Source of the DNA: Eledone cirrhosa
Taxonomy: Eukaryota
Assembly: GCA_964016885.1 (NCBI GenBank)
Contig: CAXHJY010000722.1
Span: 1 to 63,958 of the forward strand
Reading direction: 5' to 3'
DNA: 63,958 nucleotides
The notes below the pieces were generated by a model. The model ran no database searches and had not been told where the DNA came from. It saw only the letters and a list, made by a program, of their open reading frames with translations. Below are positions 29,341 to 56,356 of the stretch, piece by piece; position 1 is the stretch's first letter; every line of letters starts with the position of its first letter. The position numbers were made by a program, and so were the translations under genes.

Positions 29341-30836
29341 GGTGCAACTTTTTAAACAGAACTTAAAAAAGGAAAGCTATTCTATAGGTTATAAGAGAAT
29401 ACAATTTACAATAGAATTATGCATAGATTTTCATGGAGTTAAATGGTTAGTGTGTGTTCATGATTGTGTGTGTTTGAGTATACATGGCGTTAGAGAATGA
29501 AAGAGAGATGGGGGGGGGGGACTCAAATACTATTATCTGACTTAAGAAGATAAGCTATTGGAATCATCAGTATTAGTACTTTTAGTATACTATTAATCAC
29601 CTCTGTGAATTGCATTTATCCTACTAATGTTCCTGGTTGCCTGATACTACTAATGCCACTATACTGCTATTGCTGATATTATTCAAACCAGGAATCCTAC
29701 TACTTCTATTAATGTTTTCTTTTCTACTTGCTGCTGAAGCATCTAATCCTGTTCTTAATATCATAATTCATATCCATGGTAATGGTGACGGTGATGAAAG
29801 TGTTGATAGGGACGATGGTCATGAAGGTGATGGTAATGGCAGTAATAGAATTGATAGTGATCTTTGAAATATTTCAAGAAGTACAAAGAAAAGAATGCAA
29901 AGATTGATTCAAGGGAAATAAAGAAATAAATGTGAGTTTGAAGATCATTAATTTTACAGCAAAAATAAATTCATCTTTAGAACTACAAAAGACATATTTA
30001 ATTAAGCAAAAGTTATCTAAAATAGCAATAATTTTATGATCCTTCAGTCTAATTTTGGATTTCTATATATTTTATTCCTACTCAGCTTCCATATTATGCA
30101 AAAAACCCAAAAAAATTCTCGATTATGAAGAACTAAATTTGGATATGCTATTTAGCTTCTAAATGGCACTTATCACATATTTCAAAGAATTTTGTGAATA
30201 TTAAAGCATGAGTTAAATACACAAACACACACATACACAGACACAAACTATATATATGAAATATTAGATTACATAAATATTGCTTAAAAATACCTGCCTG
30301 TTGTTATGAAATAATGTAGTGGAAAATATTAGTGTACAGTTAGCCAGTATTTGATCTGATATATTTTCCTTCAATAAAGTGGCCCTTATTATAAAAAGGT
30401 GTTAAGACGTAGTTATTTTAAGGATAAAATAAATTACATTAATAATAATAATATCATTAATTGTCACACAAAAAAATAGGAAACATAGAGGTATCTAGTT
30501 TAATGATTCATTCAGTCTTGATGTGAGTATATTTATAACTAAGGGTGTCTTTAGCCTATTCAATTAATATTTTCTGGAAAATCATTGATATTATAGGATT
30601 CTTAATAGGAAAAATTTTAAGTATGGTAGCTTCAGGAAGTAGGTGTTGTTGGAGGTCATACTTTGACTGTGGAGTTTCTTGTTGCTAACGCAGTTCACGG
30701 TGGATGTCAGGTACCGTTTTAACTTCAGCACTTCTAAGAAGTGTCTGGTGTCTATGTCATGGTCTCCTACAGTGCTGCATTTATTCTGGCAGCATGGTAT
30801 AGTGCGTGCCACCATATATATGTATGTATATATATG

Positions 30837-31370
30837 TATGGAAAGTTCTGAGAATCCAGGAACACATTCTGCGGACCATGTCAACTTTGCTGTTTATATG
30901 AGTGGCCCAGCTTATGTTGTTGTCCACAATTACCCCCAAGTCTCTGATGTTGTTGGATGCCACGGGAGTTTCACCTGAAGGAGGGGAGTATGGGAGTTTC
31001 AGGCGTCCTCTTTTCCAAGGTTGATTAACTCGAATTTATCCTCATTCACAGCATATTGTTCTTTTCCGCCCATTGGATAGTAGCCAATAGGTTTGACTGA
31101 AGGAAAGTCTGGTCACCCACCTCATTGATGACCTTCTGGAGCTTGGAATCACCTGCAAAGATTCTTATGTTGCTGTACTTGATGATGTCAGTAATGTAAT
31201 AATGTAGATGATGAAAAGAAATGAGCCCAACACAGTGCCTTGCGGGACACCACTGCTGACTTTGGCTGGGCTTGATTTTTACTCCTTTGACTACAACATG
31301 TTGGGCTCTGTCTGTCAGGAAACACTTGATCCACTATACTAACTTTCCAGAGACATCAATGTTGGATAGT
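30837..31370 (-). mobile_element. Internal fragment of CR1-group LINE RT (same family as 32055-33415)
   Basis: Collinear with ~32709-33238 ([10 protein letters not shown]; NIRDLGV...MCSWILRTF); frameshifted; TA repeats on both sides. Confidence 0.88.
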
Positions 31371-32054: not shown

Positions 32055-33415
32055 ATAACTTTGAATAACTTTGAAATGTTTTGGCCAGTATTGGCCCAGG
32101 CCATGTCTAACTTAATAGCACCACCTGGCGAAGTCTTTCAATTCAGGATTTGGGCATCATGGCCCATTCGAGAAGAGAATTACTGTTTGCGGAGACATAT
32201 CCGGGTGTGGGTGGTTTGTCCGGGATTACTTGGAGGAATTTGTCCAAAGACTTCTTGAATTTTGTGTGGTCAGTTTCTGTTTTGACGTGTCCTGGTGTGA
32301 TGTTGAAGAGAGCAGGGCCGATTGAGGTGAAATAATTGTGCCGTATTGTTGTTATGAGTTGCGATTTAGATTTTTGAATGGGACGGATAGCACGGGGCCC
32401 AAGCCTTGGGTGTATCTTGAAGGCGATGCCAACATCATTTGGGCAGTGATGATGGAACATTTTCCACATCATGCAGATAATATAACGCTCACGGCGACGT
32501 TGGAGTGAGTAAAGTTTCAGGTTTTCTAGTCGACCCCAGTAGTCAAGGTCTGACATGCCATCTATCTTTTTTGTGATTGCCCTTTGAGGAGCTTCAAGTT
32601 TCATGATACTTTGTTTCGTGTGGGGAGACCACAGTGGACAACAGTATTCAAGGTGTGGTCGGGCAAAAGTAGAGAAGAGAAGGATAATGGTGTGGGAATC
32701 TCTCGACTGGAAGGTTCTGAGGATCCAGGAACACATTCTGCGGGCCATGTCAACTTTGCTGCTTATATGCGTGGCCCAGCTTATGTTGCTGTCCACGGTT
32801 ACTCCCAAGTCTCTGATGTTGTTAGATGCCACGAGAGTTTCCCCGGAGGGAAGGGAGTACGGGAGTTTCAGAGCATCCTTTTTTCCAAAGTGGATCAGTT
32901 CGAATTTGTCTTCGTTCAGTAACATGTTGTTCTTTTCCGCCCATTGGGTAACAGCCAGTAGGTCTGACTGAAGGCTTATCCAGTCATCCACGCCATTGAT
33001 GACCTTTTGGAGCTTGGAATCATCAGCGAAAATTTTAATGTTGCTGTGTTTGATGATGTCAGTGATGTCATTAATATAGATGATGAAGAGAAGTGGGCCC
33101 AACACAGTGCCTTGTGGGACCCCACTACTGACTTTGGCTGGGCTGGATTTGACTCCTTCAACTACAACATGCTGGGTTCTATTTGACAGGAAGCTCTTGA
33201 TCCACTGCAGCAGCTTTCCAGTGACACCAATATTGGACAGCTTTCTCAGTATAATGTTTTGATCAACCCTGTCAAAGGCCTTGCTGAAATCAAGGTAGAT
33301 AACATCAGTGTTGGAACCCTCTCCCAAGGCTCTCAAAATGTCATCAAAGTGATGCAGTAGCTGCGTCAGGCAATCCCTTCCATTACGGAATCCATGCTGG
33401 TTGGAGTTCAGCATA
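32055..33415 (-). mobile_element. 5'-truncated CR1-group LINE, family 2
   Basis: Intact RT half, short 3' UTR with hairpin GGCCA-ATAC-TGGCC, and tandem tail (TTCAAAGTTA)2. Confidence 0.92.
32143..33414 (-). CDS. LINE reverse transcriptase, C-terminal 423 aa (truncated ORF2)
   Basis: [52 protein letters not shown]; no internal stops. Confidence 0.9.
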
Positions 33416-34040
33416 TTGTTACTGTATATATGTATATTGTTACTGTATATATGTTACTGTATATATTGTTACTGCATATTGTTACTGTATATATGTATAT
33501 ATACATATATGTATATATATATGTATATATACATATAAGTATATATACATATAAGTATATATACATATATGTATATATACATATATGTGTATATATATAT
33601 ATGTGTATATATATATGTGTATATATATATATGAATAAGACTCGTCCCACCCTTGCAAGCAGGGAAAAGCGGACGTAAAATGATGATGATGATGATGATA
33701 TATATATGTATATATACTTATATGTATATATACATATATGTATATATACATATATGTATATATACATATATGTGTATATATACATATATGTGTATATATA
33801 CATATATGTGTATATATACATATATGAGTATATATACATATATGTGTATATATACATATATGTGTATATATACATGTGTGTATATATACATGTGTATATA
33901 TACATATATGTGTATATATACATATATGTGTATATATACATATATGTGTATATATACATATATGTGTATATATACATATATGTATATATATACATATATG
34001 TATATATATATACATATATGTATATATATACATATATGTA
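33416..34040. repeat. Interrupted (TA)n array
   Basis: Direct reading. Starts with ~6 copies of (AT)TGTTACTG; later an 18-bp unit. Confidence 0.93.
33637..33699 (+). mobile_element. 63-bp RTE/SINE tail tip inserted in (TA)n
   Basis: CGTCCCACCCTTGCAAGCAGGGAAAAGCGGACGTAAAA(TGA)6, nearly identical to 8517-8570. Confidence 0.85.
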
Positions 34041-35221: not shown

Positions 35222-37153
35222 ATCATCATCATCATCATCAACGTCTAACGTCCGTGTTCCACGCTTGCATGGGTTTGGACGGGGGTTTTCCCACTTGAGG
35301 CAAGAGTGATTGTCTTGCTCGCATAGGACTGTCTGGCAGGTTTTCTACAGTTGGATGCCCTTCCTAACACCAACCACATTTACAGTGTGGGTCTGGGAGG
35401 TTTTTACCGTGTTGCCTACACGGCCACATTACAGCGTGGACTGTGTGTATTTTTGTCGTGACACCTACACGATCTCATTTGTTTCGGCCTGGATGGTGTG
35501 GCACCAACATAACTTTACATAGAAGGGGGCGGTGTGGATGAGGTGGGGGTGGTGGAACGGGGGTGTATTTTGTTAGAGATGCCTACTGGCTGTAGTAGGT
35601 TTTACTTTGTATTTAGGTAAGGCGGGTCTTCTCTATTACTGAGTACCGCCAAAGGTCTCGGTCCAGTGACATTGTCTTGGTGAGGTGTAAGTGTGTGAGG
35701 TCGGAGTTTATCAGCTCGTCCCAGGTTTTTCTGGGTCTGCCTATTCCGTGGCTACCGTCTATCTTTATTGCCCTACACTTTGTTATACAGGTATCGTCCT
35801 TCATGCGCATCACGTGACCATACCAACGTCGCCTTCTCTCTAGTAAACAACATCTGATCCCTCTTATTTCTAATTTTTTCCTTAGTTTGTTTATGCTTTG
35901 TCGTTCACGTATATTACTGTTACACATCCAGCGGAGCATGCAAGCTTCGTTTCTCTCTAGTCTGCGTATATCCTCTGCACACAATACCCAGGTCTCACTG
36001 CCATGCAACATTGCTGTTCGTATGCAGACATCGTACAACCTGCCTTTCATTTTTAGGGAGAACCCTTTAGCGGCTAATAGTGGTATAAGCTCTCTGAACA
36101 TTTTCCACCCAGTTCTGACTCTAGCTACTGTACTTTCAGAGCACCCTCCCCCACTGCTGATTTTGTCACCCAGGTAACGGAAGCTGTCCACTATTTCTAT
36201 AGAACCCTCTGCGCAGTTGAAAGAGCTAGTATTTTGTGGGCACTTGCTGCTACTTATTGCCCCAGAACACCGGCCACATGTAAAATCTATGTTCTTAGTT
36301 AGCTTACCTGTGATCCCACTACATCTTTTATGCACCCAAACTTTGCATTTGGGACACAAAATGGAATTTCTACCTACGCCCTTCCTACCCTCTGCGCATG
36401 GCCACTTCCCGGAGGGGACCGCCGCCTTATTTTCTTTCTTACAAACTAGAACTTTAGTCTTAGCCAGGTTCATTTTAAGGCCTTTTGATTCTAGGCCGTG
36501 CTTCCTTGTTTGGAATTTCTTCTCTAGCTCAGCCATTGATTCAGCTATGAGCGTTAGATCATCTGCGTATAGGAGTTCCCATGGGCAGCCGGTCTTGAAC
36601 TCCACTGTTATAGCCTGGAGGGCAATAATAAATAGTATGGGGCTAAGAACAGAGCCCTGATGAACACCAACTTTTACACTAAACTCTTCACTATATTCGT
36701 TGTTAATTCTAACCTTGCTGACTGTTTCTTTATACATGGCTTGTATAGCTCTCACAAGCCATTCATCAACACCTAGTTTTCTAAGAGCCCACCAGATAAT
36801 GGAACGGGGGACTCTGTCGAAGGCCTTCTCCAAGTCGACGAAAGCTAAGTATAGGGATTTACTTTTAGCTAGGTACTTCTCCTGTAGTTGTCGTACAATC
36901 AAAAGAGCGTCTGTGGTACTTTTTCCTGACACAAACCCGAACTGCATTTCATCTAGATCAATTCACTCTCTGATTAGTTGCGCTATTACTTTTTCCGTGA
37001 CCTTCATGACCTGGTCGATTAATTTAATGCCTCTATAGTTACTCCTATCTAGTGCATCTCCTTACCCTTATAACAGTTAACGATGATGCTGCTACGCCAG
37101 TCCTTCGGAACAACCCCATTCTGTATGACTTGGTTGACTATCCGGGTGACCAT
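35222..37153 (-). mobile_element. 5'-truncated RTE LINE
   Basis: Reverse complement of ~45308-47335 at high identity; (ATG)n tail at 35222-35240. Confidence 0.93.
35613..36947 (-). CDS. RTE reverse transcriptase + PHD-like Cys/His domain (444 aa open segment)
   Basis: QFGF, FVDLEKAFDRV, GVHQGSVLSP, YADD, WPC...CPKCKVWVHKRC...CGRC, FRYLG, HGSETW, WYGHVMR, GRPRKTW. Confidence 0.9.
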   Translation of the reverse strand: MQFGFVSGKSTTDALLIVRQLQEKYLAKSKSLYLAFVDLEKAFDRVPRSIIWWALRKLGVDEWLVRAIQAMYKETVSKVRINNEYSEEFSVKVGVHQGSVLSPILFIIALQAITVEFKTGCPWELLYADDLTLIAESMAELEKKFQTRKHGLESKGLKMNLAKTKVLVCKKENKAAVPSGKWPCAEGRKGVGRNSILCPKCKVWVHKRCSGITGKLTKNIDFTCGRCSGAISSSKCPQNTSSFNCAEGSIEIVDSFRYLGDKISSGGGCSESTVARVRTGWKMFRELIPLLAAKGFSLKMKGRLYDVCIRTAMLHGSETWVLCAEDIRRLERNEACMLRWMCNSNIRERQSINKLRKKLEIRGIRCCLLERRRRWYGHVMRMKDDTCITKCRAIKIDGSHGIGRPRKTWDELINSDLTHLHLTKTMSLDRDLWRYSVIEKTRLT

Positions 37154-43559: not shown

Positions 43560-46500
43560 ACAAGTCAACAGCCTATGCTATCACATCTGGCTGCTTTTCG
43601 ATATGATGGATGGACTAAGGAATTTCTGGAGAGTCTGAAGAATCTGGACACTCGATGACAATGCCAAAGATAACGACAAATTCACATTCATGCTGCAGGA
43701 CGAAAGGGCAAGTCGCCCTCCTCTTTGTTTCATCCGCGGATGGCCAACATAACCCCAACCCCATCACCCATCCTTGCGCCCCATCCTCCAAACACAATCC
43801 AAAACTTCAGAGTTGGTACCATAAATGTAGGCACCTTAAAAGGCCGCTCTAACGAGGTTGTAGAAATGCTTGAACGTAAGGAGGTTGATGTTTGCTGTAT
43901 CCAAGAGACCAGGTGGAGGGGCGGGTCTGCTAGATTCATTGTGGGTAAAAAACGTTGCTATAAGCTTTTCTGGGTGGGAAATGACAATGGGATAGGTGGG
44001 GTAGGAATCATGTTAGCAGAAAAATGGGTGGATAAGATAATAGATGTAAATAGAGAAAATGACAGAATAATTAATTAAAATAAGACTTGTTCTATTTTAA
44101 TAATTAATTAAAATAAGACTTGTTCTATACGCGCCCCAGACCGGATTGCCTGGCGCTATAAAAGACAGATTCTATGAGACACTGATGCTCACTACCTCCC
44201 AAATAACCGACAGTGACTATATAATTATTACTGGCGATCTAAATGGCCACGTTGGTCAACATTGTGACGGCTATGACGGAATCCACGGAGGCTATGGGTT
44301 TGGTACTAGAAATGAGGAAGGCTCCAGAATCCTGGAATTCTGTGATGCAAATAACCTAACTATCTGTAACACTAACTTCAAAAAACGAGACAATCACTTG
44401 ATCACCTACAGATCGGGGGAACATACCAGCCAGGTAGATTATATCCTTACCAGAGGACGTGACAGAGTGTCTGTTGTAAACACAAAATCCCTCCCCCATG
44501 AAGAATACACCTCCCAACATAGACTGCTAATTAGCGACCTCATAGTCAGGACGAGACATACTAGACAACAGAAGAGGACTATCCTCAGGAGAAAAAATAT
44601 GGAAGTTAAAGGACCCCACAGCCAGAAATAAATTTCAAAGCATGTTACTTGATGCTTTCGACAGTAAGGAAGAGTAATTAGAGTCAGATAATATAGAGGA
44701 ACAGTGGGAATTCCTTAAAGCAAACCTGCTGACGGCGGCAGACGAAGTCTGTGGCTGGAGCAGGCCTGTAGGTAGGAGGAGAGTAACATGGTGGTGGAAC
44801 AGTAAGGTGGAGGAGTCAATTAAGGCCAAAAAGCAGGCTTGGAAAGTATGGCGGGATGGGGGAAGTAGAGAAGACTACCAAGTGGCCAGGAGGGAAGCTA
44901 GGAGTCAAGTGTACTTCGCAAGAAGAGAAGCAGAGGAAAGAAAGTTCAAGCATGTTCTACAACGTGAGGACTAAAAACGTGAGGTGATCAGGATTGCTAG
45001 GCAATGTGTCAAGGAAAACCGTGATATTGTCGGGGAGAAGTGTGTACTTAATGATGATGGTGTACTTGCCATCACTGATGCTGATAAGAAGGTAGCTTGG
45101 AAGTGTCACTACGAAAGGCTTCTAAATGAGGAGAATAAATGGGAGAAAGACAGTCTCCCCCACATCGACCCAATAGAAGGACCGGCAGTGTTCGTCGAAG
45201 GTAGTATAATAAGTAAGGCAATCAAAGATATGAAGATGGGTAAGGTGGCTGGGCCTTCGGAAATAGTTACTGAGATGCTGAAAGCCTCTGGAACGGTGGG
45301 ACACACCATGGTCACCCGGATAGTAAACCAAGTCATACAGAATGGGGTTGTTCCGAAGGACTGGCGTAGCAGCATCATCATTAACTGTTACAAGGGTAAA
45401 GGAGATGCCTTAGATAGGAGTAACTATAGAGGCATGAAATTAATCGACCAGGTCATGAAGGTCACGGAAAAAGTTATAGCGCAACTAATCAGAGAGAGAA
45501 TTGATCTAGATGAAATGCAGTTCGGGTTTGTGTCAGGCAAAAGTACCACAGACGCTCTTTTCATTGTACGACAACTACAGAAGTACCTAGCTAAAAGTAA
45601 ACCCCTATACTTAGCATTTGTTGACTTGGAGAAAGCCTTTGACAGTGTCCCCCGCTCCATTATCTGGTGGGCTCTTAGAAAACTAGGTGTTGATGAATGG
45701 CTTGTGAGAGCTATACAAGCCATGTATAAAGAAACAGTCAGCAAGGTTAGAATTAACAACGAATATAGTGAAGTGTTTAGCGTAAAAGTTGGTGTTCATC
45801 AGGGCTCCGTTCTTAGCCCCCTACTATTTATTATTGCCCTTCAGGCTATAACAGAGGAGTTCACGACCGGCTGCCCATGGGAACTCCTATACGCAGATGA
45901 TCTAACGCTCATAGCTGAATCAATGGCCGAGCTAGAGAAGAAATTCCAAACATGAAAGCATGGCCTAGAATCAAAAGGGCTTAAAATTAACCTGTCTAAG
46001 ACTAAAGTTCTAGTTTGTAGGAAAGAAAATAAGGCGACGGTCCCTTCCGGGAAATGGCCATGCTCAGTGTGTAGGAAAGGCGTAGGTAGAAACTCCATTT
46101 TTATGTCCCAAATGCAAAGTATGGGTGCATAAAAGATGTAGTGGGATCACAGGTAAGCTAACTAAGAACATAGATTTTACATGTGGCCGGTGGTGTGATG
46201 CAATAAGTAGCAGCAAGTGCCCACAAAATACTAGCACTTTCAATTGCGCAGAGGGTTCTATAGAAATAGTGGACATTCTCTGTTACCTGGGTGACAAAAT
46301 CAGCAGTGGGGGAGGGTGCTCTGAAAGTACAGTAGCTAGAGTCAGTACGGGATGGAAAAAGTTCAGAGAGCTTATACCACTATTAGCCACTAAAGGGTTC
46401 TCCCTAAAAATGAAAGGCAGGTTGTATGATACCCGCATACGAACAGCAATGTTGCATGGCAGTGAGACCTGGGCATTGTATGCAGAGGATATACGCAGAG

Positions 46501-52750: not shown

Positions 52751-53398
52751 AAGGGAAAAAGAAAAGGAGGAGAGCACAAGCACGGACCTGAAAGAAAATG
52801 ATATACCCTTCGCTACAGGCAGGGAGGGCAGGCCGGGCAACCAACAAGCTAAGGGCAAAGGTGAAAAGCGAAATCACCTTCCGAAGGAGAACCAAGCGCA
52901 GAGGGACCAGTGGACAACTGTTCAAAGAAAGAACAGAAAGCACCGAGACACTGGGAGCAAAAAACACCAAGTAATGTGCAAGTTTTTCAAGAACGGGACA
53001 TGCTGGTATGGAGAGACAGGGATGGGATGCAGATTCGCCCACCCTAGGTCTCAACCAACTATGCCCATCATACTCGCGCAACATGCCCCAGCCAAAGCCG
53101 AAATAAGCCGCTCCAGAAGTATGCTGATGTCGCGCGTGCTGCACCAACAAGGAGAAGGCACGCACATGCCGACGAGATACAGATGGCAGCAGCAGATCAG
53201 AAAAATTTTTTAGTGATGGCCGAGAAGATTGTGGGACAGCTGACCTGGCTGCATCGTCTCCAGAGCCAGGGTCATCCACACCAGCACTCGAGACCACCGC
53301 AGTTAAGGGACCCAGAGTGGCCGCCGCTGACACCAGACCAGGTGTCATACCGACAGCCATTACTGGCACCCCAAAAGTCACACCAGTGCTGCTGCTGA
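52751..53398 (+). CDS. ORF1 remnant with CCCH zinc finger (5'-truncated, one frame discontinuity)
   Basis: [22 protein letters not shown] (C-x7-C-x8-C-x3-H) at 52977-53042. A second frame, open 53048-53398, encodes KYADVAR...QKNFLV. Confidence 0.6.
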
Positions 53399-56356
53399 AT
53401 GTCAGGGGCCTGGTGAAACTCAGCAACATGAGTAAAATTTCCTACCTGGGAGACTTAGCCATAAGCAATCAAGCACTATGCATGGCACTAACCGAAACGC
53501 ACCTGACAAGCAGTATAGCAGATGCAGAAATACATATACCGAAATATACTGTATTTCGTTCGGACAGGAAGGAGAGAACTCATGGTGGGGTTGCTCTGTA
53601 TATCCGTGAAGATGTCACACCAATTGTTCTGTTGACACATTCAAACTCAGTCTGTGACACACTGATAATACATATGAAGCAACTACAGACGGTAATATGT
53701 GTCACATATCGGCCGCCCGATGCCCCCAGTCATGAGGGTAAATTTGAGGATAGCCTAAGTAGGATAGAAGAGGTCCTTGACAAACTGGACCAGGGTCTCA
53801 ACATCCTACTGCTGGGAGACTTCAACCTACCAAAGGTCAAATGGCCTGAGGGCCACCTCCTCCCTGGAATGACGTCAATAGAACAGAGACAGACGGAATC
53901 CCTGCTGGCCCTCACACACAGGCTGTTCATGGAGCAAGCAATACTCCTCCCAACAAGAGGCGAAAATGTCCTGGACCTCTGTTTTACAAACAACGAAGTG
54001 CTCATCCACAATGTAAAGGTGACACCAACAATTCTCTCGGATCATAACTTGGTAGAGCTAATGATATGTGGTCCAAGAGAACCAACAGAGACAAAACCAC
54101 CAAGAAGCTCCGGGACGCTATCCAGCCTTAACTTCTACAGGGCTGACTGGAAGAAGATTAAGAGTGAAATCCGGAAGCAAACATGGAGTGCAAACATCGC
54201 CACACAAGACACTAACACACAATTTCAACACTTCATGACAACGATACACACCATATGCAAAAAGTGTGTCCCGGAGAAAGAGGCAAACAGACACAAAAAT
54301 CTTATTCCCAGAGATAGGAAAATCCTTATGAGACGTAGAACTAAACTCTCAAACCAGTTGAATAGTCAACAAAACCAAAACAAGAAGGAATCCTATTTGA
54401 AACGTGCACTACTTGACACCGAGATTGCACTCAAGCTTTCACATGAGAATGAGAGGGCAAGGAAAGAGAACAGGGCCATAGAAAACATTAAAACAAACCC
54501 TAAGGCCTTCTTTAAATTTGCAAAAGAAACTGCCTCAGTACACTGCAAGATTGGACCACTCTTCCACACGGACGGTTCATTAACCGAAAATCCCCAAGAG
54601 ATATGTGAAATACTGAATGAACAGTACAAAAGTGTCTTCACATGTCCACTGAGGCACATGCAAATAACGAAGCCAGAGGAGTTCTTTGATGCCACAACAC
54701 TACATCAAGAAATGGCAACCATCAACCACATAGACATAACGGAGGAGGATGTGGTGTACGCCATTGATGAAATTAGAACAGACTCGGCTGCTGGACCTGA
54801 TGGATTCCAGCAGTTCTCCTAAAAATATGTAAGCGGGCCTTAGCAACTCCACTGAAGATGCTCTTCAGAAGCTCCTTGGCTAGCGGTGTACTACCCAGGG
54901 AGCTGAAAGAAGGCACAATATGCCCTATCCATAAAGGAGGTAGTAGAGCGGAGGCCAAGAACTATAGGCCAGTCTCCCTGACGTCGCATATCAGTAAGGT
55001 CATGGAGCGAGTCGTCAGAAAGAAACTAATCACTTTCCTCGAAGAAAATGACCGCCTGACTAGCACGCAACATGGCTTCCGCCCAGGAAGAAGCTGCCTT
55101 ACACAGCTGCTACATCACTACGACTGGGTACTGAGACAGCTACTAGACAGCTCACATGTAGACGTGATATATCTTGACTTTGCGAAGGCCTTTGACAAGG
55201 TCGACCACGGAATGATATGTCACAAACTACACGGACTCGGCATAACTGGAAAAGTAGGTGAGTGGCTGCATGGCTTCCTGAGGGACAGAAGCCAGGCAGT
55301 CGCAGCAAATGGGGCTCTCTCGAGGGAAACACCGATAACAAGTGGGGTGCCTCAGGGGACAGTCCTGGGACCACTACTGTTTTTGGTGGCTCTCTCGGAC
55401 ATGCCCTCTCTGGTGCATGCAACAACATCCCTCACTAGCTATGCTGATGACACTAAGGTAGCACAGGCAATCAAAACCCGGCTGACACTGCCCTCTTACA
55501 GCAGGATCTGGATGCCATATACAGATGGGCGGAAGAAAACAACATGCAGTTTAATGCTGGCAAATTCCAAGCCCTACAATACAAACCTGCAAACACAAAC
55601 ACAAATATAGCGGAACACAGCTACACAGGACCAGGAGGGACCGATATCCCCGTGTCAAAATCGATACGAGACCTGGGCATAGACATGAGCGATGATGCAT
55701 CTTTTTCTTCACACATCATGAAGGTGGCGACAGCATGTAGACGATTCGCTGGCTGGATCTTGAGGACTTTCCTTACAAGAGATCGAGACACCATGTTGAC
55801 ACTGTGGAGGACTTTTGTCCTAAGCCGCCTGGACTACTGCTCCCAGCTGTGGTCACCCCATAGTGTCAAACTAACCACAGAGCTTGAGGCAATCCAGCGA
55901 AGCTACACCAAGAGGATTGCCAAGATGAGGGAGACAAGCTACTGGGAGAGGCTGAAGGAACTGAACCTCTACTCCTTGGAGCGAAGACGGGAGAGATACG
56001 CAGTGATCTACATGTGGAAAATCCTGGAGGGACTAGCACCAAACTTTGGCATTGGGAGCTGGACCAACCGTCGAACAGGACGTCACTGTGTGGTGCCAAA
56101 GGTCCCGTCTTCCACATCTAGAATAAGGAGCAGGTATTGCAATAGCCTGGGATTCAAGGGCCCTCAACTCTTCAACAGGCTGCCGAGGCATCTGCGAGAC
56201 TTGCATGACGTGGAGGTGGATGTCTTTAAGAAACATCTCGACACCTTGTTATCCAGGATCCCGGATGAGCCCACAGCAAGACACGAGGGAAACCTAAGGG
56301 CAGCAGCAACAAACTCCCTCCTACACCAGTGGCCAACCTATACAGGCTGGAGATAA
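53206..56356 (+). CDS. ORF2: APE endonuclease + reverse transcriptase (~1050 aa if two 1-bp gaps are repaired)
   Basis: [34 protein letters not shown]; [34 protein letters not shown]. Made up of ORFs 53317..54822, 54858..55610 and 55544..56356. Confidence 0.92.

Follow-up and report, generated by a model that had tools for sequence, protein, structure and literature searches.

How the second open reading frame (ORF2) of LINE retrotransposons comes to be translated has been called an open question (PMC3894237; PMC5009743), and it is raised again by a 63,958-nt stretch of the Eledone cirrhosa genome (contig CAXHJY010000722.1, hereafter the window), where a LINE copy carries an ORF2 that lacks an AUG before its first endonuclease strand. 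A preliminary description of this locus had proposed that ORF2 is reached from ORF1 by a -1 frameshift of retroviral type, at a T-TTT-TTA heptamer stimulated by a long hairpin. Our analysis supports the first part of this proposal, through the conservation of the heptamer across families and the openness of the -1 frame behind it, and does not support the second. We put at roughly 0.85 the probability that programmed -1 frameshifting at U-UUU-UUA yields an ORF1-ORF2 fusion of ~1,307 aa.

The element is a young, 5'-truncated, CR1-like LINE copy on the forward strand (52751-56432), 99.4% identical to copy L038 across 3685 nt and flanked by TA microsatellites on both sides. In the 3.0 Gb genome assembly, its family returned 845 candidate matches, the best 40 of them at 99-100% identity, and intact copies are ~4.9 kb in full length. 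The family is young, with copies 99-100% identical and several having both the ORF1 and the ORF2 frame intact, and is probably active, which would make the frameshift testable on a living element. Compared with an intact copy, that of the window has three private frameshifting indels, at ~53053, ~54807 and ~55472. ORF2 codes in the -1 frame for an APE endonuclease domain (53395-54045; Pfam PF03372, E 4e-9, and PF14529, E 1.5e-11), followed by a reverse transcriptase domain (RT) that the indels split in this copy (54927-55472; PF00078, E 6e-26), while no Pfam match to RNase H was found in ORF2 and its C-terminal 299 aa match no family. The element ends 3' in tandem repeats of 8 nt (TAAAAGAG, 56415-56432), ~60 nt past the ORF2 stop (56354-56), and two to three units of the same repeat, with no poly(A), end all ten copies compared. 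An ORF2 with APE and RT, 5' truncation and a short tandem-repeat 3' end make up the anatomy of the CR1 group, and membership of the LINE in it fits by anatomy; the assignment rests on these features and on C-terminal ORF2 motifs that we take to be of CR1 type, our quick tree having no named clade references. An octamer tail is indeed how CR1 elements end (PMC2612034).

The 5' UTR of the full-length copies L031-L040 is ~900 nt long and contains 8-9 upstream AUGs (the 5' end was found in 8/10). Directly 5' of the ORF1 AUG, these copies have a 326-nt tract, 85% pyrimidine and ending in CAG, the sequence of which resembles either the end of an intron or a site for internal entry. The window also holds three more distant RT fragments of other retroelements, with 27-32% identity, at 45143-45841 on the forward strand and at 36618-37061 and 30835-31260 on the reverse strand.

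The window copy retains the 3' part of ORF1 (52752-53398), which in intact copies is 320 aa long and here is broken at ~53053. It includes a CCCH-type zinc finger (52977-53048; Pfam zf-CCCH, E 0.0013, below the curated cut-off), whose frame runs in this copy into a TAG at 53211-13. The preliminary description had therefore assumed an indel at ~53047-53100, and this proved real: the window copy has a private one-base gap (53053-53054), an extra base being present there in 29/29 other genomic copies as well as in contigs of all the sequencing runs compared. Accordingly, the finger and the heptamer fall in one 320-aa ORF1, and an ORF1 end at TAG 53213 can be rejected, the frame being continuous over 319-320 aa in 9/10 longer copies (L032 was left out). 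ORF1 continues for 61 codons beyond the peptide N-F-L, an extension absent from the preliminary description, up to a TGA (53396-53398) overlapping the codons for L-N in the first strand of the endonuclease. Four of the nine long copies assessed have all 1048 codons after the heptamer together with an intact ORF1, giving a fusion of 1306-1307 aa.

Concerning the junction itself, several points of the preliminary description were borne out by the sequence. The heptamer T-TTT-TTA, which codes for F-L of ORF1 and is the predicted site of the -1 shift, lies at 53206-53212 in the phase AAT TTT TTA, so that a retrovirus-type X_XXY_YYZ heptamer stands in the zero frame. In the -1 frame, the stop nearest upstream of the endonuclease is at 53125-53127, in the same place in 30/30 copies, and the first -1-frame ATG is at 53428, after the first APE motif (V-L-L-L-N). 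We also found a second in-phase heptamer that had not been described, A-AAT-TTT (53203-53209), which overlaps the first by four bases and is not conserved in relatives. The stretch from the heptamer to the ORF1 stop (53213-53398) is dual-coding: the zero frame gives the ORF1 tail, with an amphipathic-looking helix followed by a P/Q/H-rich segment, and the -1 frame gives a low-complexity ORF2 linker.

A search for homologues of ORF1 returned no match among 1993 candidates, a search of the ESM Atlas gave no usable match, and none of 57 pattern matches in viral contigs was confirmed. The ORF1 N-terminus, missing from the window copy and read in another (L007:1178-1400), has a W-x-x-x-E...W...R-K-R-K arrangement reminiscent of a Myb/SANT-like (trihelix) domain, and has no Pfam match.

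We looked for the junction in 80 metagenome loci, of which 31 were dropped for lacking an endonuclease start, having less than 320 nt upstream or having a broken frame; the remaining 49 and one own-genome copy make a usable set of 50. Seven of the metagenome loci are close relatives (APE profile score >170, ~33% identity to the query) and form one clade with the window family (SH-aLRT 100 in the quick tree, from which L128 and L143 were left out as too short), with ctenophore proteins also inside. All seven have an in-phase T-TTT-TTA at the homologous F-L, preceded by CCCH fingers in the 5/7 whose contig reaches them, and followed by a helical segment. The fingers number from one to three, and some relatives, such as L092, have a PHD finger.

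No other pair of adjacent residues besides F-L is invariant in a nine-row ORF1 alignment, which speaks for the site. F-L pairs within the ORF2 of these relatives are coded as T-TTT-TTA in only 1/22 cases, and no further in-phase T-TTT-TTA was found among 10,553 other same-phase positions, which together argue that neither chance nor protein constraint explains the heptamer. The codon-usage product for T-TTT-TTA over the seven relatives is ~1e-13, independence being assumed. The heptamer is conserved at the nucleotide level beyond the need of the protein. A further relative, L129, belongs to the 31 dropped loci on account of a broken ORF2 and was left out of the counts; read by hand, it has G-GAT-TTT in place of T-TTT-TTA at the same F-L, with -1-frame stops just upstream, and G_GAU_UUU is listed as a shift site of plant viruses (PMC5009743).

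The coding pattern around the heptamer points the same way. Upstream of the junction, 105 stops in 1158 codons keep the -1 frame closed; its open part begins 6-24 nt ahead of the heptamer in the seven relatives and 81 nt ahead of it in the window family, and from heptamer to APE the linkers of the eight elements contain no -1-frame stop in 681 codons, compared with 56 in 673 codons of the third frame. With synonymously recoded ORF1 tails, ~22 -1-frame stops would be expected, the joint probability of none being ~1e-11.5, and in the reverse test ~10 ORF1 stops are expected in the linker and none is observed in 649 codons; against these expectations both frames look selected. No AUG is present between heptamer and first APE strand in 7/8 elements, the exception being L093, with -1-frame AUGs inside the linker. 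The sequences thus show how the frames are laid out in intact copies and that ORF2 has no AUG, and, across a deep clade, that the heptamer and the open -1 frame are conserved.

The same genome offers a second case. The window contains, on the reverse strand (32164-33429), a 3' fragment that belongs to another young family of such LINEs, hereafter the second family, with 41% RT identity to the first and 1513 candidates in the genome. The two families are 35% identical in ORF2 and have no DNA similarity at the junction. We took 11 of the 29 other loci, those reaching farthest 5', and examined them after the hypothesis had been fixed. Of the eleven, eight extend as far as the junction. Each of these eight carries T-TTT-TTA in phase, at a distance of 18-21 nt from the -1 stop preceding it, and lacks an AUG ahead of APE. 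Full copies end in an 8-nt repeat tail. Searches of the genome with the endonuclease parts of two of the relatives returned only the first family. A (TA)n microsatellite occurs at 10/10 3' flanks of the first family and at the one second-family 3' end read (L264); a target preference of both families for such repeats is possible.

Over the 50 usable loci as a whole, the overlap contains 44 canonical heptamers in phase, versus 9 and 17 in the two other phases, and the same length upstream of the overlap gives 7, 18 and 7. An in-phase canonical heptamer is present in 38/50 loci and absent from 12/50, all of the latter outside the close clade. In the farther CR1-like loci (L103-L165), the commonest site is A-AAA-AAC (17 in phase versus 1 out of phase), followed by G-GGA-AAC (3 versus 1) and T-TTA-AAC (3 versus 0). 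A-AAA-AAC is among the most shift-prone sites for mammalian ribosomes (PMC5009743), though in these loci it coincides with a conserved K-N (A-K-N-L) of the ORF1 peptide and protein constraint may contribute to its count.

Support for the hairpin is weak. The stems named in the preliminary description do form in the predicted fold of 53213-53300 (core 53241-50/53264-74, extension 53230-35/53275-80), but this fold, of -30.3 kcal/mol, is only as stable as chance would give (z -0.88, equalled by 37/200 shuffles; z -1.6 for the core alone). Its outer stem, CGAG with CTCG, requires a C at 53221; 14 of ~102 distinct copies have this C, and 86 an A. The C is confined to the youngest subfamily and is, judging from this distribution, a recent allele. 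The stem was said to start ~8 nt after the heptamer; the firm stem starts instead 17-28 nt after it, the usual spacing from heptamer to structure being 5-9 nt (PMC5009743). Subfamily changes fit the fold (53258 lies in the loop, 53275 gives G-C or G-U), and they are few, in a region coding for two frames. A consensus fold of eight junctions gives no pairs, and the second family has no stable fold after its heptamer (z about 0). Across eight elements the mean z after the heptamer is -0.5 to -1.1, against about 0 in controls (pseudoknot-free folding), and a strong fold immediately 3' of the heptamer is confined to 2/9 elements (z -3.7 and -3.9). We regard a stimulatory role for this hairpin as doubtful; the conserved signal looks to be the heptamer itself, with a 3' stimulator that is variable or absent. 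A second predicted hairpin (53307-53371) is the most stable 88-nt window by z-score of the 81 scanned (z -4.56, 0/200 shuffles). It lies 95 nt beyond the heptamer and 25 nt upstream of the ORF1 stop, and has no equivalent at that offset in relatives.

Some observations count against the frameshift. ORF1 stays open through the linker, with its stop at the APE start in 8/9 elements, and frameshifting alone needs neither; there is no conserved stimulator; and the heptamer is often mutated in genomic copies. It is intact in 78 of ~102 distinct copies (a 123-row copy table contains duplicates), with a variability of 4.2% versus 2.3% in the flanks. These changes are scattered across subfamilies, as expected from dead copies. 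Within 53203-53212, the A5-T6 run shows recurrent scattered changes at about twice the flanking rate, such as T to C at 53211 in nine copies and A to T at 53205 in 13. The database proteins P0003-P0005, relatives at 60-66% identity called with an N-terminal Met, also count against a shift. Three others, P0009, P0010 and P0011, have CCCH-ORF1 and APE-RT in a single frame; in P0011 the two are joined at F-F-R-V, which equals the -1 product of L088 and speaks for the shift. These single-frame fusions may represent genuine one-ORF variants, copies altered by mutation, or artefacts of assembly.

Two other routes to ORF2 fit the data worse than -1 frameshifting. The first, and the main look-alike, is splicing: TTTTTTAG would be a 3' splice site, and a spliced RNA would link an upstream exon to the -1 frame. 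A pyrimidine run with AG is indeed present at this place in 7/9 elements, another acceptor-like tract occurs in the 5' UTR ahead of ORF1, and the opening of the -1 frame shortly before the heptamer would suit an exon start as well. However, the AG behind the heptamer is missing from L089 and shifted two bases downstream in L097, and L129 reads G-GAT-TTT-CTT. An acceptor does not need an exact six-T run in a fixed phase. Moreover, no genomic copy has a non-T junction at the AG, against 265 unspliced, a count that detects only back-copied spliced RNAs and only junctions without T at -3 and -4, and no joints were seen within 52950-53460 in contigs from four sequencing runs of unspecified type. 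We consider splicing highly improbable.

The second is a stop-restart coupling as in SART1 and L1 (PMC5972666), where ribosomes ending ORF1 at 53396-98 would restart at a near-cognate GTG or CTG within 53386-53397, and F-L would be kept for the ORF1 protein only. This would account for an ORF1 that is kept open up to its stop, for the position of that stop relative to the APE start, +10 or -8 nt in 8/9 elements, and for the strong second hairpin just upstream of it. On the other hand, the +10 position follows from the conservation of the L-N codons, and in the second family ORF1 stops 59 nt before APE. Nor do the elements share a start codon around the ORF1 stop: in L100 the APE motif is not preceded by any near-cognate, in L089 the sole candidate is an ATA 19 nt upstream, and a -1-frame AUG adjoins the ORF1 stop in 1/8 elements. 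The AUG overlapping the stop that characterizes SART1 is absent here, the ATG after the TGA (53399) lying in the ORF1 frame. Finally, a restart leaves unexplained both the choice of T-TTT-TTA codons and the stop-free -1 linker, and we hold it to be very unlikely. A TURBS-like UGGGA (53232-36) was considered and set aside; it lies 164 nt before the ORF1 stop and none occurs within 200 nt in 7/7 relatives. Polymerase slippage adding a base to the T run during transcription or copying, so that a minority of RNAs would have fused frames, could draw on P0011, fused in one frame exactly at the heptamer, and on the mutation-prone A5-T6 run, and seems to us the least probable of all.

Under -1 frameshifting, ribosomes translating ORF1 would reach U-UUU-UUA and a minority would re-pair one base back. 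Most would keep frame and make the 320-aa ORF1 protein with its helical and P/Q/H-rich tail, while a few percent would shift and make a protein of ~1,307 aa, composed of 259 aa of ORF1 including the CCCH finger, a flexible linker of ~60 aa, APE and RT. The fusion would thus retain the CCCH module and drop the ORF1 tail. The shift would set a high ratio of ORF1p to ORF2p, and the fusion would tether an RNA-binding module to the enzyme, like Gag-Pol.

A conserved seven-base site offers a testable answer to how such LINEs translate ORF2. If it is correct, these elements make their ORF2p as a fusion with ORF1, ORF2 starts are mis-annotated in repeat libraries, and many consensus junctions recorded as 'frameshifted' are functional. 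In the accessible full-text literature we came across no report of a slippery site conserved among LINEs of the CR1 group; older subscription papers and Repbase reports lie outside this scope, and a prior suggestion may exist.

With the CR1/L2 LINEs of the Jockey superfamily the element shares APE and RT, the lack of an RNase H match and a short 3' UTR with octamer repeats, although the available text of a survey of ORF1 proteins mentions neither a CCCH-finger ORF1 nor frameshifting (PMC4120745), and that of PMC10294476 does not mention frameshifts. SART1, with its UAAUG stop-start, and mammalian L1, with an unusual reinitiation, are likewise bicistronic LINE RNAs of low ORF2 output (PMC3894237; PMC5972666; PMC5009743). 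However, these tested cases rely on reinitiation, and their ORF2p is a protein of its own, started from an AUG located at the stop of ORF1 or beyond it, whereas here ORF2 has no AUG and overlaps ORF1 by ~270 nt. Frameshifting has been described within the gag of HeT-A (PMC5009743), and comparable, too, are the Dictyostelium TRE5-A and TRE3-A, APE-type non-LTR elements for which a review legend states that ORF2 needs a -1 frameshift (PMC5911963); the available text of PMC5006619 adds no evidence on this point. The TRE elements differ in belonging to another clade and in having a C-terminal zinc finger and an oligo(A) tail, and the accessible part of that review gives neither a slippery site nor conservation across lineages (PMC5911963).

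A further likeness is with the gag-pol junction of HIV-1, where U_UUU_UUA is identical in sequence and phase and allows two products, with Leu or Phe at the shift (PMC5009743). The LINE differs in being a non-LTR element with APE-RT and no protease to release the enzyme, in having no stem-loop demonstrated at the customary distance of 5-9 nt, and in an ORF1 tail that runs 34-132 aa past the heptamer. If the frameshift is true, non-LTR elements and retroviruses would have reached the same control of stoichiometry independently.
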